Source of the DNA: Nannocystales bacterium
GTDB taxonomy: Bacteria; Myxococcota_A; Polyangia; Nannocystales; Nannocystaceae
Assembly: GCA_050633305.1 (NCBI GenBank)
Contig: JBOEGF010000010.1
Span: 800,001-864,000 of the forward strand
Length of the DNA stretch: 64,000 nucleotides
Reading direction: 5' to 3'
In this document: piece after piece, positions 47,069-54,647 of the stretch
How positions within the stretch are numbered: the first letter of the stretch is position 1
Layout of the letters: each line of letters opens with the position of its first letter
Made by a program: the position numbers and the translations under genes
Notes under the pieces: model-generated
Told to the model about the DNA's origin: nothing
What the model saw: the letters and a program-made list of their open reading frames with translations, nothing else
Databases searched by the model: none

Positions 47069-48099
<1,031 letters not shown>

Positions 48100-48103
<4 letters not shown>

Positions 48104-48705
48104 GCGACGAAAACAGGACACGGAATCGTGCTCAGTTCGCCAATGAGGGGGGCGTGGACGATCCCGACTCCCAGCCCAGCGAGCCGTTGGCCGACCTCGC
48201 GGGCGTATTTCGGGACCACCACGGGTTCGTTTGGCGCAGTTTGGTGCATCTCGGTCTGCCCACGGCCACCGTCGACGATGCCCTGCAGGACGTGTTCTTG
48301 GTCGTTCACCGCCGCATCGGTCACTTCGACGGGCGAACCTCGATTCGGAACTGGCTGTACGGAATCACGCGCCGGGTGGCCAGCGAGTACCGTCGCGGAA
48401 CCCGGCGCGCGATTCGTCGACTCGAAGTTGTTCGCGATCCCGACACTCATGCGGACCCGGAGGGCCTCGCGAACCGAATCTCGGCGGCCGACGCGGTCGC
48501 GAAGGTGTTGGACACGCTCGATGAGGACAAACGAGAGGTTTTCGTGTTGGCCGAAGTCGAGGGGATGACGTCGGTTGAGATCGCCGAAGCGCTGCAAACG
48601 AACGTCAACACGATCTATGGGCGTCTACGTGCCGCTCGCCTGCATTTTGCTCGGGCCCTCAAGCGCGAGCAGGCGCGCGCGGGTCGCCAGGAGAGACAAC
48701 GATGA
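48100..48705 (+). CDS. ECF RNA polymerase sigma factor
   Basis: [27 protein letters not shown]...EIA...NVNTIYGRL; start may lie slightly downstream. Confidence 0.92.
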
Positions 48706-49475
48706 ACGAGAACGAACGCGCTGCACTCGCGGAGTACCGTGGCTCGCTGGGGAGGAAGCAGCCCGAACAGGACCGGGACTGGGCTCGTCTCGTGAGCAAG
48801 ATCGAGGCCGGTGCGCAGCCGCTTTCGGTGGAGCTTGAGGCGCGCCCGCGACGTCGATGGCTTCCGTGGGGACTTGGCGCGGCGGTTGCGGTCCTGAGCG
48901 CCGTGTGGGCGTGGCCGGAGCCCGAGCCGGCCGACGCCGCTCATCGACCCGGCGGAGCCCAGGCGGCATATGGGGCCGGGGAACAGACGTCTTCGGCCTC
49001 GGTCCGCTCACAGTCCCTGCCTGTTCGTAGCGTGGACCCCGGACGACAACCTTCGACATCGGGCGCACCCTCGGTCGAGCCGGACCTCCCGCCGGCTCCC
49101 GTTCCGGCTCTCGCCCCCGAGGCGAGGCGGGGTATCGTGGACCGTCGCAGTCGAGCGCCGGCCTCCGGTCGCGAGGTCGAGCCCGCGGCGGAGGTTCCCA
49201 AGACCCACAATGTGGTCGCAGAGGCGAAGGCGCTGCGAGAGATTCGAGCCGCGTTGCGAGACCAGGACGGACGGCATGCGCTCGGGTTGCTCCGACGCTA
49301 CCGCTCCCGGTTTCCAACCGGGGTGCTTCGGGATGAGGCGACGGTGCTGCACGCAGACGCGTTGTGCTTGGATGGGCAACGGGAGAGGGCTCGAACCATC
49401 GCGGCTCGCTTCGCTCGTTCGCATCCCCGCTCGCCGCTTGCCGGGAGAGCCCGGGGCCTATGCGAGGACTCGTGA
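48702..49475 (+). CDS. putative single-pass anti-sigma factor with C-terminal TPR-like helices
   Basis: ATGA overlap with the ECF gene; one TM; ALGLLRRYRSRFPTGVLRDE...FARSHPRSP. Confidence 0.7.
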   Translation: MNENERAALAEYRGSLGRKQPEQDRDWARLVSKIEAGAQPLSVELEARPRRRWLPWGLGAAVAVLSAVWAWPEPEPADAAHRPGGAQAAYGAGEQTSSASVRSQSLPVRSVDPGRQPSTSGAPSVEPDLPPAPVPALAPEARRGIVDRRSRAPASGREVEPAAEVPKTHNVVAEAKALREIRAALRDQDGRHALGLLRRYRSRFPTGVLRDEATVLHADALCLDGQRERARTIAARFARSHPRSPLAGRARGLCEDS

Positions 49476-49981
49476 GCCGAGCCTCGTTGTTCATGCTGGT
49501 CGTTCTCGGCGGTTGTACGTTGACCGCGTCGTTGGGCGGAGACGCCGAGCAAGGAACCAGCGGAACCGGCGGCTCTTCCAGCACGACGTCGAGTTCATCG
49601 GGGCAAGCCGTCTCGGGCGTAGAGACTGGCCCGGGTCCCGGGGTGAGTACCACCGGGGACCCCGGGGCCTCCTCGACGGGGGGGAGTACGAACTCGGCCA
49701 GCTCGAGCTCCACCGGGGCGGTGGAAAACACGAGCGGAGGGCAGCCCATGGTGTGCGAGGGACCCAGTGACGAGAGCTGTCTAGCCTGTCTTCGGGAGAG
49801 CTGTTGCAGCGTGTTGGAGCAGTGTCTGAGCACGCCGTTGTGTGCCTGCATCCTGGGTTGTCTCGAGTTCGCGCCCGACTTCGTGAGCTGCGTGGACCTC
49901 CCAGCCTGTGCCGGGGGTCCAACTGCCGATGTGCTCCAGCTGTGTGCTGTGGGCGACTGCGGGCCCGCCTGCGGCTTCTAA
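49472..49981 (+). CDS. Cys-rich lipoprotein
   Basis: LGGC lipobox, S/T spacer, Cys-rich tail; GTGA overlap. Confidence 0.72.
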   Translation: MSRASLFMLVVLGGCTLTASLGGDAEQGTSGTGGSSSTTSSSSGQAVSGVETGPGPGVSTTGDPGASSTGGSTNSASSSSTGAVENTSGGQPMVCEGPSDESCLACLRESCCSVLEQCLSTPLCACILGCLEFAPDFVSCVDLPACAGGPTADVLQLCAVGDCGPACGF

Positions 49982-50074
49982 AAGAAACCTGGAAATCGCT
50001 TCACGGATCGGTGTGGCTGGCCCCCAATACCTCGTGTGACCGGTTGCGCACGAGCGCAGCGCGGAAGGGACAAC

Positions 50075-50671
50075 ATGAACAAACACCTACTGACTTCACT
50101 TGGTGCGATCTTGACCGCGGGCATGCTGACGCTCGCGGGTTGCGACGGTGGTTCGGACGCCGCCGACACGGACAGCGGCACCGGTACCGACACGGAGGCC
50201 TCGGGGACCGACGCATCTGCCTCCGCGTCCGACTCCGATTCCAACTCGGCGTCCGACTCCAACTCGGCGTCCGACTCCAACTCCGGGGTCGACAGCGACA
50301 GTGACGGAACATCTTCGACGACATCCGCTGGTACCAGCGGGGCCACGACCGGTGGTGCAGAGTCGGGGTCGAGTAGCGCCGGGACCACCGGCGGCGAGGA
50401 CTCGGGATCCACAACGGGGGGCGAGGATGGCTCGACCGGAAGTGATGCAGGGTCAACCGGGGAAGAAGTCGACGCCTGCATGGGACTTGAGCTTCAGCAG
50501 TGCTTCATGACCGAGGGCTGCACCTGGGAGGCGGCGGGCCCTGGCACGGGGGAGTGTGTCACCGGTGGCGGCGCTGGTGAGGGCGGCGGGGTGTGTGAAT
50601 TCATCCCCGTCGCGTTCTGCGAGAGCACACCTGGGTGCACGGTCGACGGAATGGATTGCGTCGAGGAGTAA
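50075..50671 (+). CDS. Ser/Asp/Gly-rich lipoprotein with Cys-rich tail
   Basis: GGAAGGGA RBS, LAGC lipobox. Confidence 0.78.
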   Translation: MNKHLLTSLGAILTAGMLTLAGCDGGSDAADTDSGTGTDTEASGTDASASASDSDSNSASDSNSASDSNSGVDSDSDGTSSTTSAGTSGATTGGAESGSSSAGTTGGEDSGSTTGGEDGSTGSDAGSTGEEVDACMGLELQQCFMTEGCTWEAAGPGTGECVTGGGAGEGGGVCEFIPVAFCESTPGCTVDGMDCVEE

Positions 50672-50677
50672 CGCGGG

Positions 50678-51214
50678 CTACTTGAAGACGTTCTCGCGAT
50701 AGAACTTGAGTTCCGAGATCGACTCTCGGATATCGTCGAGGGCCCGATGGCTCTGCCCTTTGGGTGGGGCCTTCGTGTCCGGGTACCAGCGCCGCGTCAG
50801 CTCCTTGACCGTGCTGACGTCGATCATCCTGTAGTGCAGGAACGCGTCGAGCTTGGGCATGTAGCGCGAGATGAAGCGGCGGTCCTGCCAGATCGAGTTG
50901 CCACACAAGGGCGACGCGCCGGCTTTGCACAGCGGCTCCAAGAACGCGAGGGTCTGTGCCTCGGCCTGCGCGAGTGAGGTCGTTGATGCCTTCACTCCTG
51001 CGGTGAGACCCGACTCCCCGTGGTGGTTGGTGCACCACTCGTCCATCGCATCGAGCACCTCGTCGGGCTGGTGGACGATGATCTCGGGGCCTTCGGCGAC
51101 CAGCTCAAGGTCCGCATCGGTGACCAGCGTTGCGATCTCCAAGATCCTGCAGGTCTCGGGATCCAGGCCCGACATCTCCAGATCGATCCACACGAGGGGC
51201 GCGGGCGTCGTCAC
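50678..51214 (-). CDS. orn: oligoribonuclease
   Basis: WIDLEMSGL, LCGNS, HYRMIDVST and HRALDDIRES motifs. Confidence 0.96.
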   Translation of the reverse strand: MTTPAPLVWIDLEMSGLDPETCRILEIATLVTDADLELVAEGPEIIVHQPDEVLDAMDEWCTNHHGESGLTAGVKASTTSLAQAEAQTLAFLEPLCKAGASPLCGNSIWQDRRFISRYMPKLDAFLHYRMIDVSTVKELTRRWYPDTKAPPKGQSHRALDDIRESISELKFYRENVFK

Positions 51215-51575
51215 GGCCGCAGGCTAACACGGCGTAGATCCTCCGCCGGGAGCGGAGGCCGCGGCGGCGAGCTGTGAGAACGGCGTCGAAACGGAGTCTG
51301 GACGCGCCCCATGTGCACGACCCGGAGACCCCGGAGTCGACCGGGCCACCTTCCGACTCGTCGTCCTCGCGATCGCTGAACCTTGGGTCAGCGCCATCGA
51401 CGCGACCGACCGCGGAGCATCTGAGGACAGTCGTGCGTCCCAGTCCGGTACCCCGGCCGCTCGACGGACGGTAGGTGTCCATCTGGGCCCGCGAATCGGG
51501 AGTTCTCGATTTTTCTTGGCGGGTACCGACACGAACTGACGACTCCGGTGTTGTTAGGCTCGCGACTGGGTTCTT

Positions 51576-52055
51576 TTGGCCGTCGACGTCGACAACCTCT
51601 ACCGCCGGTACGGACCGTTCGTGTTGCGGCGTTGTCGAAGGATGCTGCGCGATGAGCAGCAAGCGTATGAGGCGATGCAAGACGTTTTCTTACAAGTGCT
51701 GCGGCGCCGCGAAGCCATCGAGCCTCGAGGGCTGGGTGGGCTTCTGTTTCGGATCGCAACCAACGTCTGTCTCAACCGAATCCGGTCGACCACCCGAAAA
51801 CCACAGTTCTCCGCGAGTGACATGCTTCATCGAGTCCCAGCAGCCGAACGTTACAGCAGCCAAGCCGAAGCGCGTGATCTGCTTCGGAGTGCGTTCGCCG
51901 ATGAACCAGAGAGCTCCGCGACCATCGTAGCCTTGCATCTGCACGACGGGCTGACGCTCGAGCAGACTGCACGCTTTGTCGGCATGTCGGTGTCTGGTGT
52001 CCGCCACCGCCTTCGGGTCCTCAAAGCCAAGCTCCAGGAGCTCCGTGATGCCTGA
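51576..52055 (+). CDS. ECF RNA polymerase sigma factor
   Basis: YEAMQDVF, LFRIATNVCLN, DGLTLEQTA...GMSVSGVRHRL. Confidence 0.88.
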   Translation: MAVDVDNLYRRYGPFVLRRCRRMLRDEQQAYEAMQDVFLQVLRRREAIEPRGLGGLLFRIATNVCLNRIRSTTRKPQFSASDMLHRVPAAERYSSQAEARDLLRSAFADEPESSATIVALHLHDGLTLEQTARFVGMSVSGVRHRLRVLKAKLQELRDA

Positions 52056-52893
52056 GACCGTTCCCGACATCCTCGTAGAACTTCTCGCCCTGGGCGAACT
52101 CGACGACGCGGAAGCGAGTGCCGTGCGGGCGCAGCTCGAGGCCGAGGGCGACCCCCGACTCGACGAACTCGCAACGAGCGACGTGGAGGTGTTCGCGCGG
52201 TACCCCGCGGAGCAGGTCGTCGCCGAACTACGCGAGGCTGGGTTTCCGCCGCAACCGGTTGCCGAGGAGCTGCCCTCCAACGTCACGCCCTTGACTCGGG
52301 CGCAGGCGGCACCCCGGGCCCGAGTCCGACCGTGGGTCGCCGCAGCCGTCTCCGTGGCTGCTGCCGCTGTCTTGGTGTGGGCGCTGGCCTCGGGCGACGA
52401 GCTGCCGCCCGAGGAGCCGCCGAGGGTTGCGATGGTCGACCCTCCGACGACCTCCGGCGATCCGGCGGGGATCCGTACGAAGGGGGTTCCTCGCATCCTC
52501 GTTCATCGGCAGGGCGAGTCCGATCCGCTGGAAGCGGGTGCGGCAGTCCACGCCGGCGACATGCTTCAGCTGTCGTACTCGGGGGCGGGTGGCCGACACG
52601 GTGTGATCGTGTCGCTCGATGGGGCCGGTGTTGCGTCGCTGCACTTCCCGGCTCAAGCCGACGCATCGACAGAACTCTCGCGGGGGCTCGTACGACTCGA
52701 GTACGCGTACGAACTCGACGATGCACCCGTGTTCGAACGGTTCTTCCTGGTCACCGCTCCCACACCGCTCGACCCCGATGCAGTCCTGTCAGCCGCGCGT
52801 CGGTTGGGGCAGAGCGAGGCGCCTGGTGCTGGGGAGTTGGAGTTGGCGGAGAGTTGGTCGGCTGTTTCGCTCGCGGTCAAAAAGTCAGACTGA
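52048..52893 (+). CDS. ActD-like anti-sigma/membrane protein with DUF4384-like C-terminal domain
   Basis: VPDILVELLALGEL, one TM, IRTKG, GDMLQLSY, AYELDDAPVFERFF. Confidence 0.72.
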   Translation: MPETVPDILVELLALGELDDAEASAVRAQLEAEGDPRLDELATSDVEVFARYPAEQVVAELREAGFPPQPVAEELPSNVTPLTRAQAAPRARVRPWVAAAVSVAAAAVLVWALASGDELPPEEPPRVAMVDPPTTSGDPAGIRTKGVPRILVHRQGESDPLEAGAAVHAGDMLQLSYSGAGGRHGVIVSLDGAGVASLHFPAQADASTELSRGLVRLEYAYELDDAPVFERFFLVTAPTPLDPDAVLSAARRLGQSEAPGAGELELAESWSAVSLAVKKSD

Positions 52894-52954
52894 TTTCCGG
52901 GGCGACGTCTTTCGTGCCCACCGAACAAGTCTCGTTTTTCTTCGTTCGATCGCC

Positions 52955-52983
52955 TTGACCCGGTGGGGTTCGTCCCCTACACC
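52955..52983 (+). promoter_or_regulatory. sigma70-type promoter for the leader-tRNA transcript
   Basis: TTGACC-17 nt-TACACC; same -35 and spacing as the tRNA-Val and fic promoters. Confidence 0.5.
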
Positions 52984-52989
52984 GATGCG

Positions 52990-53261
52990 GTCCGCCCCTG
53001 GCGACGACGCGAGAACTCGCCATGGAACGCTTCACGACCCAAAAACGCACAGCGGCCAAACCGGCTCTTGTGCGGATGGTTGCGCCCACGAAGGGCCGCA
53101 ATATGGGCGCGTGTTGAGCGTTCCCGGGCGTTGTTGCTGACGTTGCACTTCGGTGTACAGGCGGCCTGCCCGGGCGCTGGGACATGCGAACTTCAACCCG
53201 CCCTGCAGGCGGCCGACGTCGTCGTGACGTCATCGTCGTGGGGTCGATTCCCACGGCTCTT
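52990..53261 (+). ncRNA. candidate structured RNA/leader preceding the tRNA pair
   Basis: nested complementary segments with G-U pairs, a C(UUCG)G hairpin, and a T-arm-like terminal hairpin. Confidence 0.4.
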
Positions 53262-53266
53262 GTCTC

Positions 53267-53340
53267 GGTCTGGTAGCTCAGTTGGTTAGAGCGGCGGATT
53301 CTTAACCCGCAGGTCGAGGGTTCGATTCCCTCCCGGATCA
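53267..53340 (+). tRNA. tRNA-Lys (CTT), CCA not encoded
   Basis: acceptor GGTCTGG/CCGGATC, D arm GCTC-AGTTGGTTA-GAGC, anticodon loop TT-CTT-AA, T arm GAGGG-TTCGATT-CCCTC. Confidence 0.9.
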
Positions 53341-53346
53341 CTGCGT

Positions 53347-53417
53347 GGGTCTGTAGCTGATTGGATAGCACTCGTCTGTTAAGCGAGCGCATGCGGGTTC
53401 GAATCCCGCCGGGCCCT
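53347..53417 (+). tRNA. tRNA-Asn (GTT), atypical
   Basis: acceptor GGGTCTG/CGGGCCC, anticodon arm CTCGT-CT-GTT-AA-GCGAG, T arm GCGGG-TTCGAAT-CCCGC; short D arm. Confidence 0.82.
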
Positions 53418-53459
53418 TCACATCATCGCGCCTCGGGATCGCTCCGGCTCCGGCTCTGG

Positions 53460-54647
53460 CTATTTCGGGGGCCCGAACACTTCGCGAAGGACCTCTTGCA
53501 CCCACGCTGCGTGCTTGTAGTCCACAGAGTCCGAACGCTCCCTCGGTGCGACCACGCGAACGACGACGTGGTCTTCGGGGTCGTGGGGCTCGGCGGGTCG
53601 CTCGACCAAATGGACTTCGGCCTCGCCCACACAGTCCTCTCCGCACTCGGGCACGTGAGAACCATCGGCATACGCCCGGACCACGTCGTCGACACTGATC
53701 TCGACCCGCTGCCCCAGCTCGACGGCGTACCCCGTGGAATCGAACTCTCCCAGCTGAACCATCAGAGCTGCGAGCCCGTTGAGCAGGTCTGTGGCGCGCT
53801 GGAGCACCTTGGGATCGCGAGGCAGGCCGTCGAGTTCGAGGTCAGGGCTTCCGAACCGACGCATCCCTCTGGTGCTCAGTCGCACGCCGTCGGGGTTCAT
53901 CTTGTCGATGAACGGGACGACGGCGATCTGCTCGGCGATGTTGCCCAACGACGACTTGAGCCGACGCTTGGTGAAGGTGTCGGTGCCCACCGTCTCGCCG
54001 GTGTCCGGATCGTGGATGAGCGCATCGCGCTCAAGCGCGACGATGCGGGTGAGTGTTTGCAGGAGGCGGAGTCCTCGGACCGCGTACTGGTTGCGGTACT
54101 CGGCTCGCAGCAGGAGGGCTTGGGTGCGGCCCGGCAAGCTCGAACGCTGCTCGGCGGTCAACGCTCGCGTGAGGATGGGGTCCGCAAGCGACGCGGAACC
54201 GACGGCGCCCTTCGAACCACCGACCGGGAGCATGTCGATGTTGATGCCGAGCAGGTCGCGAGTCGCTCGAGGTGAGCCGTCGCCGGGGCCAGCGGCCACG
54301 GGTGCGGGCTCGGTGGCGATGAATTCCAACAGCAACGCAAGCTCGGGCTCGTCGGTGGCGGTGGCGAGCTTGGCCTTGACCAACGCCTGGAGCGCTTCGC
54401 GGGTGGGAGCCTGATGTTTGCCCGGGGGGAGCAGCAGCAAGTATGCCTGCGACGTCCGGTCGGCAAACACGATCAAGTGCGGGTCGCCGGACTCCGGAGG
54501 CTCCGTGCTGGGGGATTCGTCGCCCGAGGCCACAGCGGGTGCGGCGGTCTCTCCCGTTCGCTGTCCGGCGGTTTGAGTCTCGTCCTGAGCGGGCTGCTTG
54601 GCACAGGACGCGCTCAGGGCGGTGAGGAGCAGGAGCGAGCGTTTCAT
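53460..54647 (-). CDS. hypothetical lipoprotein
   Basis: SASC lipobox, [14 protein letters not shown] motif; ATGA overlap with the upstream dehydratase. Confidence 0.72.

Follow-up and report, generated by a model that had tools for sequence, protein, structure and literature searches.

In the window, the whole 64,000-nucleotide stretch of DNA that was analysed, the region ahead of an accessory tRNA pair is best explained as the 5' leader of an accessory tRNA operon with an attenuator-like leader peptide tuned to the operon's own tRNAs (probability about 0.72). When ribosomes stall at matching codons, the leader would probably allow production of spare tRNAs. Comparison with relatives brings out a promoter, a short upstream open reading frame (uORF), a match in amino acids between this ORF and the tRNAs behind it, and two helices predicted to exclude each other. 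The host genome is an assembly of 11.0 Mb in 90 contigs, 92% complete and with 66% GC. The features of the operon are as follows.

52955..52983, + strand: putative sigma-70-type promoter (TTGACC, 17 nt, TACACC), called from its conservation in homologs
53018..53036, + strand: segment 1, the start-codon region; with segment 2 it would form P1, which closes the uORF and hides its start
53022..53117, + strand: leader uORF of 31 codons, MERFTTQKRTAAKPALVRMVAPTKGRNMGAC then TGA, with 3 Lys codons and 1 Asn codon
53108..53138, + strand: segment 2 (Cys codon, stop, and GCGTTCCCGGGCG), common to P1 and P2
53144..53157, + strand: C(UUCG)G hairpin inside the variable P2 loop, not conserved
53160..53188, + strand: segments 3/4; with segment 2 they would form P2, a long stop-spanning hairpin, or else fold locally as P3
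53235..53265, + strand: T-arm-like, terminator-like hairpin with a weak T-rich tail, not common to homologs
53267..53341, + strand: accessory tRNA-Lys(CTT), found by ARAGORN and Rfam
53347..53417, + strand: accessory tRNA-Asn(GTT) with G1-C72 and U73, in which it differs from the housekeeping copy on contig C7

A conserved reading frame in the leader

The leader contains a small gene that had been overlooked. The sequence-only reading of this DNA saw a stretch without a convincing gene and proposed an unannotated ncRNA or a regulatory leader. An ATG at 53022 instead opens a conserved 31-codon frame that ends in TGT-TGA at 53112-17. A leader co-transcribed with the tRNAs is supported, while a stand-alone ncRNA of ~270 nt is not; the uORF and a competing fold were missed, and a real feature was misread as a free ncRNA. 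The tRNA pair had been recognized correctly, with tRNA-Lys(CTT) at 53267-53341 and tRNA-Asn(GTT) at 53347-53417 both confirmed by ARAGORN and Rfam.

The frame is kept from an M-x-R start to a Cys-TGA end in 27 distinct homologs, and its product has no match in Pfam. Used alone as a DNA query against 72 genomes of the host family, the leader gave weak matches covering its first half only. The three matched loci examined (G020, G063, and G067) all have a TTGAC promoter on one side and a block of tRNA genes on the other. An alignment was made of these three, the window, and a further locus (G017) found through its tRNA-Lys. The promoter and the ATG are common to the aligned loci, as are a TGY-TGA-GC stop and, beyond it, a CGG-T/G-G stretch. 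Conservation in relatives, a point raised by the sequence-only reading, spans the promoter, the uORF, and ~70 nt past the stop, but not the 3' half (53140-53262); for 53190-53266 no homolog was found among the leader loci except for T-arm matches. The proposed promoter is supported by conservation, with TTGAC and the greater part of the -10 hexamer unchanged in all five aligned homologs, and TTGAC promoters of similar form precede housekeeping tRNA genes of the host genome, but a strict sigma-70 consensus scan of the leader found 0 promoters.

The window's uORF shows a modest amino acid match of its own (4 of 30 codons, p about 0.01), and two of its three Lys codons are AAA, which the CTT anticodon does not read. 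It also has four Thr, two internal Met, and one Phe codons. tRNAs for Thr, Met, and Phe follow the same leader in relatives and are missing behind the window leader.

Leader ORFs match the tRNAs behind them

Across the host family, long leaders ahead of tRNA blocks carry ORFs that match the amino acids of those tRNAs. Accessory and housekeeping tRNA clusters were gathered from relatives, and one rule was applied to 85 loci, taking the nearest promoter-like site, its distance to the first tRNA, and ORFs of 9-60 codons. By this rule 52 units have a leader of at least 100 nt and 21 have a shorter one; no promoter was called for 15 clusters. An ORF is present in 51 of the 52 long-leader units, which come from 17 genomes of the host family. 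The short-leader and promoter-less groups are mostly housekeeping pairs (Gln-Glu, Pro-Arg, Glu-Lys, Ile-Ala, and Ser-Ser), and they include accessory clusters that the rule missed or that are leaderless (L262, L271, L280, L281, and L295). Housekeeping-type clusters have their promoter 10-81 nt ahead of the tRNA, which leaves little or no space for such an ORF.

The own tRNA amino acid set is scored above every disjoint set by 48 of the 51 ORFs. For these units, which are relatives and not independent samples, the mean -log10P is 3.51, compared to 0.65 (maximum 1.38) in 20,000 permutations, with the best frame taken for real and permuted ORF-tRNA pairings alike. When one random unit is drawn from each of the 7 homology classes, the exact permutation p is 0.0002-0.0006. 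For example, MERFTTTTPMNTERMFGMGFMFGTC is encoded upstream of Met and Phe tRNAs (L266), MNRSTTDSHHHMRDHVVFVHSMHDICPC upstream of Asp, Asp, and His tRNAs (L251), and MFFSRQEQQQI upstream of two Gln tRNAs (L288). Cognate codons sit later in the ORF on average (0.60 vs 0.47). Matching at the level of the anticodon was rejected, as the arrays read 214 of 301 codons vs 212 expected; the match is one of amino acids. Three units fail (L227, which is an Arg block, L252, and L256), and one has no ORF.

All four of the host genome's other accessory blocks with a promoter call were tested, and three of them match (Pro/Gln/His, Ser/Tyr, and Leu). The ORF upstream of the Pro/Gln/His block has a run of Gln, His, and Pro; that of the Ser/Ser/Ser/Tyr block is rich in Ser with one Tyr; and that of the Leu/Leu block has six Leu codons. 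The Arg/Arg block (L227, G000:C47:19107-19300, minus strand) has an Arg-rich frame that lacks ATG or GTG and was counted as a failure; its leader has possibly decayed or uses an unusual start. A class-wide search with the Pro/Gln/His block found it in the host genome only (1 of 251).

Within the subfamily of the window, defined as 16 genomic leaders with an M-x-R start and a Cys-TGA end, the codons of the ORF change with the tRNAs. Lys codons are found in the ORF body of six of the nine leaders with tRNA-Lys and none of the seven without it. Phe codons are present in 8/8 leaders with tRNA-Phe vs 1/8 without, and Asn codons in 8/8 with tRNA-Asn vs 3/8 without. The same holds for Asp (4/4 with the cognate tRNA vs 2/12 without) and Ile (5/5 vs 2/11), and for Thr, Met, Ala, Val, Gly, and Ser the difference is in codon number only. 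The p-values of these subfamily comparisons overstate the case because the leaders are kin.

An independent set points the same way. When metagenomes were scanned for the stop motif alone, 18 of the 29 matches had a promoter, an in-frame leader, and downstream tRNAs, while the remaining 11 had neither promoter nor tRNAs. Two of four viral matches were positive. One viral record of 497 kb with 49 tRNA matches (G637, C1:310300-376800, L345-L351) has matched leaders ahead of six tRNA blocks, for example MRRQQDQT upstream of a Gln tRNA; its other tRNAs (Met/Val/Arg, Ala/Met, and Ile to Phe) have no leader of their own by the rule. Two of the six leaders are clearly related to chromosomal leaders of the host family, and it is possible that this virus was a donor or recipient of tRNA-leader modules. 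A two-mismatch search for the stop motif in the host family stayed at background level. An exact pattern, which missed the window itself, was found in 0 of 401 genomes across the phylum, among which only four others of the host family were sampled, so it tells little of the range. A scan of a genome collection with a pattern for the 3' hairpin gave at least 120 matches scattered over many phyla.

The uORF could also be a general sensor of translation stress, of the whiB7/wblC kind, that switches on with any stall, the match being an unselected relic of a phage ancestor. The window keeps its Thr, internal Met, and Phe codons with those tRNAs gone, no match is seen at the anticodon level, the same modules occur on a large viral record, and the response of the whiB7 uORF depends on its amino acid content (10.1101/2023.06.02.543512). 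However, the content of the subfamily leaders follows reshuffled arrays (Met/Phe, Asp/His, Met/Asn, and Thr/Val/Ile), which points to continued selection and makes this explanation unlikely. Its mechanism is that of the tuned leader; specificity alone differs.

Two predicted exclusive helices share the stop-codon segment

The leader is predicted to fold in two ways. P1 and P2 are mutually exclusive in the structural models, both using the stop-codon segment. All of the sequences pointed out by the sequence-only reading are where it placed them: TTGACC/TACACC (52955-83), 53001-10 with 53128-37, 53024-31 with 53117-24, the hairpins at 53046-74 and 53082-110, C(UUCG)G at 53144-57, and the stem at 53164-53210. 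Its pairings are all present in the minimum-energy fold of 52985-53262, and this region is more stable than dinucleotide-shuffled controls (z -3.12, 0/200 shuffles equally stable); a second count gave z -3.77 for 52990-53262 and -3.82 for 52990-53140. The uORF explains the helix noted earlier, in which the start-codon region is paired with the stop-codon region. In the helix GGAACGCT/AGCGTTCC, codons 1-4 are paired with bases at and after the uORF stop.

Comparison with homologs supports both helices. P1 has 12 core pairs that are 90% paired across 16 homologs, a level reached by 0 of 500 shuffles and well above slid controls (21-56%), and three of its pairs have changed on both sides, so that covariation in relatives is borne out for this start-stop helix. 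The P2 duplex of the window has an energy of -35.5 kcal/mol, and 0 of 300 shuffles are as strong. Of 27 distinct homologs, 22 have a P2 duplex significantly stronger than with shuffled partners (p<=0.01), and for P1 the number is 20. The stop-spanning fold is significant in 13 of the 16 subfamily leaders vs 10 of 33 other leaders. In the window P3 is part of a stem at 53160-53213. The spacer from the stop to the first tRNA varies from 94 to 331 nt among the subfamily members inspected.

The position of the ribosome decides between the helices in constrained folding, which placed a 30-nt ribosome mask on 16 homologous leaders in equilibrium models. A ribosome sitting on the stop covers the 5' part of segment 2, and P2 then forms in 0 of the 16 leaders while segments 3/4 fold alone. 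P2 is formed by 15 of 16 leaders when the ribosome stalls early or queues, by 12 when it stalls midway, and by 14 when it stalls late. In the full-length fold of the window leader, P1 persists when a single ribosome stalls at codon 13, 18, or 27. Since P2 already wins without a ribosome in 9 of the 16 homologs at equilibrium, the part of the model in which an untranslated leader is off needs co-transcriptional folding.

Possible output of the proposed switch

Neither of the two known routes of transcription termination appears to serve as the general output of these leaders. A hairpin with a T-tail occurs in 2 of 51 leaders, compared to 24 of 38 ends of non-accessory clusters, a set with some uncertain tRNA calls in it. 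The ends of housekeeping tRNA clusters thus show that the organism uses hairpin and U-tract terminators, and 49 of the 51 leaders lack one. In four leaders (L218, L221, L230, and L278) the stop is 6-23 nt from the first tRNA, too little distance for a terminator. A classical U-tract terminator was rejected as a general output. Accessory cluster 3' ends have no hairpin plus U-tract terminator either (0 of 6). The one terminator-like match of the window leader is the unconserved hairpin at 53235-65. This hairpin scores only 5-6 bits where it matches accessory tRNA profiles (model positions 46-66), beats 200/200 shuffles for the Lys, Asn, and Gly tRNA profiles, and may be a relic of a lost tRNA gene; no full pseudo-tRNA was found in the spacer, where relaxed ARAGORN settings gave low-score calls only.

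Output through Rho was also rejected, as Rho (TIGR00767, E<=1e-60) was found in 0 of 72 host-family genomes and 0 of the 42 near-complete ones; the same search was positive in 8 of 14 reference genomes used as a control. An RNase J-like gene is present in the host genome. PMC12642595 reports that cyanobacteria without Rho end many transcripts without known terminators, mentions the RNase J1 torpedo of Bacillus, and describes for cyanobacteria no global role of RNase J and a limited role of Mfd in ending. The lack of a general U-tract terminator and of Rho favours premature ending or decay under ribosome control. Our guess is that the output is premature factor-dependent termination or 5'-to-3' decay, blocked by a stalled ribosome together with P2.

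The proposed mechanism joins these parts. A ribosome on the stop would block P2 and leave segments 3/4 to fold as P3, and P1, when formed, would likewise block P2. If a ribosome stalled or waited in a queue at an earlier point of the ORF, segment 2 would be free and P2 could form. Stalling would come from a lack of working Lys- or Asn-tRNA; shortage of Thr, Met, or Phe would presumably have the same effect, and relatives keep those tRNAs behind the leader. In the stalled state the downstream tRNAs would be made. The leader transcript would otherwise be subject to premature ending or decay controlled by the ribosome and relieved by stalling, and the molecular agent is a guess. The sign of the switch, on when stalled, is taken from the logic of attenuators and from the stress induction of the tRNA arrays of Anabaena, as described in PMC8421152.

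The opposite sign is quite unlikely. Smooth translation of the ORF would then melt P2, and the tRNAs would be made when amino acids are plentiful and turned off in starvation. P2 is indeed a long stable hairpin and the one removed by a finishing ribosome, there is no terminator to fix the sign, and in the equilibrium fold of the window leader the weak terminator-like hairpin at 53235-57 is also lost once a ribosome occupies the stop. However, that hairpin is not conserved, and P1 and complete translation yield the same 3/4 fold, which makes P2 specific to the stall, as are the antiterminators of known attenuators. The long tRNA arrays of Anabaena are silent and are induced by translation stress (PMC8421152).

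It is very unlikely that the region is a stand-alone structured ncRNA of ~270 nt, like GOLLD, ROOL, or Y RNA, with an incidental ORF. Folding z-scores of about -3 to -3.8, the T-arm-like 3' hairpin, and a weak YrlA match would suit such an RNA. The YrlA match is the sole near match to Rfam in the leader; it scores 26.4 bits where the cut-off is 69, and the D arm of tRNA-Lys makes up half of it. No Rfam family reaches the cut-off in the window leader or in nine related loci, where only tRNAs were found. The sequence-only reading was right to see no T-box, tmRNA, RNase P, or SRP motif, as an Rfam search of 52700-53700 gave no match to these, or to 6S RNA, up to E=10; the host genome's tmRNA is on contig C7. 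A free ncRNA is also at odds with the unconserved 3' half and the variable spacer from stop to tRNA, and it leaves the open frame and the amino acid match unexplained. That the peptide itself is the product, or that it arrests ribosomes through the nascent chain, is suggested by its fixed ends (M-x-R-x-T at the start, Cys ahead of TGA) and can be dismissed as highly improbable, since those ends are exactly the bases paired in P1 and P2 and the middle is not conserved as sequence but follows the tRNA set.

A broader extension of the tuned-leader reading is speculative. A family without Rho would control modular spare tRNAs by amino acid group, using modules shared with phages and an output that is neither Rho-dependent nor intrinsic. 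Every block would have a test ORF to itself, on which the decoding of its amino acids is gauged. The output could be, for instance, a chase by RNase J that a stalled ribosome and the stop-spanning hairpin block. Where anticodon nucleases or toxins had depleted tRNA pools by cleavage, the modules, common to very large phages, would replenish them.

Accessory tRNA genes and their surroundings

The accessory tRNA genes of the window are unevenly distributed. tRNA-Lys(CTT) at 53267-53341 is the sole intron-free tRNA with a CTT anticodon found by ARAGORN in the 92%-complete assembly, and in a sample of the host genome's long ORFs ~82% of Lys codons are AAG. Other members of the host family have a stand-alone CTT gene (L006, L018, and L027). 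The accessory tRNA-Asn type is patchy, occurring in 12 of 72 host-family genomes and 0 of 6 genomes of the same genus. The acceptor stem of this accessory tRNA(GTT) type (window, L212-L221) resembles those of accessory tRNA-Lys genes and not that of housekeeping tRNA-Asn. A gene for AsnRS lies just outside the window at C10:868311-869648.

The module looks like an insertion in the host or a loss in a relative. In G004, a genome of the same genus, the gene to the right of the tRNAs adjoins a gene that starts like the oligoribonuclease of the window, so that the ECF sigma gene and the gene next to it, with the intervening tRNA module, look like an insertion here or a loss there. Three other genomes of the genus have different neighbours and no tRNA at that place. 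Two ORFs for ECF-type sigma factors are found in window positions 47069-52893, at 48100-48705 (by eye) and 51576-52055 (Pfam). A possible anti-sigma ORF comes after each of them, and long (ES)n/(PE)n repeats occur in an ORF at about 47400-47600.

Several other observations concern tRNA genes in the collection. Misfolding of the first tRNA by the leader through acceptor-strand pairing was considered and rejected as an explanation, as it holds weakly (14 of 89 first tRNAs vs 3 of 42 housekeeping ones). tRNA-Thr accounts for most of these cases, with 7 of its 19 genes at p<=0.05. A short copy of an ACCGGC-type acceptor 3' strand lies within 35 nt upstream of the first tRNA-Thr in L313, L325, L329, L338, L212, L253, and L278, and could pair with the 5' strand of tRNA-Thr. 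In L272 (G044:C16, position 1508, minus reading; compare L220), ARAGORN calls a tRNA with anticodon TTA inside an Arg/Pro block. This anticodon would read the TAA stop; elsewhere in that genome Glu and Asn tRNAs are repeated in a block. At G000:C32:152651-152730 an ARAGORN 'tRNA-Asn(att)' heads a Glu-Lys cluster and resembles a Glu-type tRNA with a longer anticodon loop.

Comparison with known systems

The logic of the window leader matches that of the trp and thr attenuators, with their scheme of 1:2, 2:3, and 3:4 helices. As in enterobacterial attenuators, there is a short leader ORF rich in the relevant amino acids, often several together, and the models give alternative 1:2, 2:3, and 3:4 helices with the stop at segment 2. 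The leader ORF lies between promoter and genes, cognate codons are enriched, and the modelled helices are exclusive, but 3:4 is not an intrinsic terminator with hairpin and U-tract, and for this reason the window leader is not classed as a classical leader-peptide attenuator. It further differs in that helix 1:2 encloses the whole ORF, no U-tract follows 3:4, and the target is tRNA genes rather than enzymes, with a separate matched leader for each tRNA block. The enterobacterial leader-peptide attenuators (trpL, thrL, hisL, ilvL, pheL, and pheM-pheST) are summarised in 10.1101/2023.06.02.543512. The whiB7/wblC uORF attenuator of actinobacteria, also described there, resembles the window leader in that stalling favours an alternative helix and the amino acid content of the uORF sets the response; it differs in having a Rho-independent terminator, a transcription factor as target, and a broad response that is not matched to tRNAs.

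Other systems share parts of this arrangement. GOLLD, ROOL, and YrlA/YrlB are likewise structured RNAs beside tRNAs, whereas the window leader has no Rfam match at the cut-off, a conserved ORF inside, and an unconserved 3' half. In the mgtA/mgtL and mgtCBR leaders of Salmonella, uORF codons reportedly steer alternative stem-loops as in the window leader, and control of mgtA is said to need no intrinsic terminator and to depend on Rho. This dependence sets the mgtA/mgtL type apart from the host family, which appears to lack Rho. Long tRNA arrays (L-arrays) and the trn operon of Anabaena are also accessory, patchy sets of extra tRNA genes, and L-arrays have been proposed as a backup under translation stress (PMC8421152 and PMC10272220). 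The Anabaena trn operon differs in being one long operon with a DNA-binding repressor, TrcR, at promoter repeats (PMC8421152; PMC10272220). The words 'leader', 'attenuat', and 'uORF' are absent from the text of PMC8421152.

A full-text search of mostly open-access literature turned up no paper that describes tRNA genes controlled by a leader peptide. The usual view is that bacteria regulate their tRNA genes in bulk, through growth rate and the stringent response, or, for one cryptic array, with a repressor. A leader that gauges the decoding of its tRNAs' own amino acids would be a direct feedback of tRNA supply on tRNA genes. Since these leaders have neither of the known stop signals and their family appears to lack Rho, they provide a compact handle on non-canonical termination, a question that cyanobacteria without Rho pose as well (PMC12642595). 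To the known systems this case adds the absence of both known termination routes, a covarying start-stop switch, and a reshuffling test within one leader family. It would also give the accessory tRNA arrays of bacteria and large phages, a long-standing question, a testable job.
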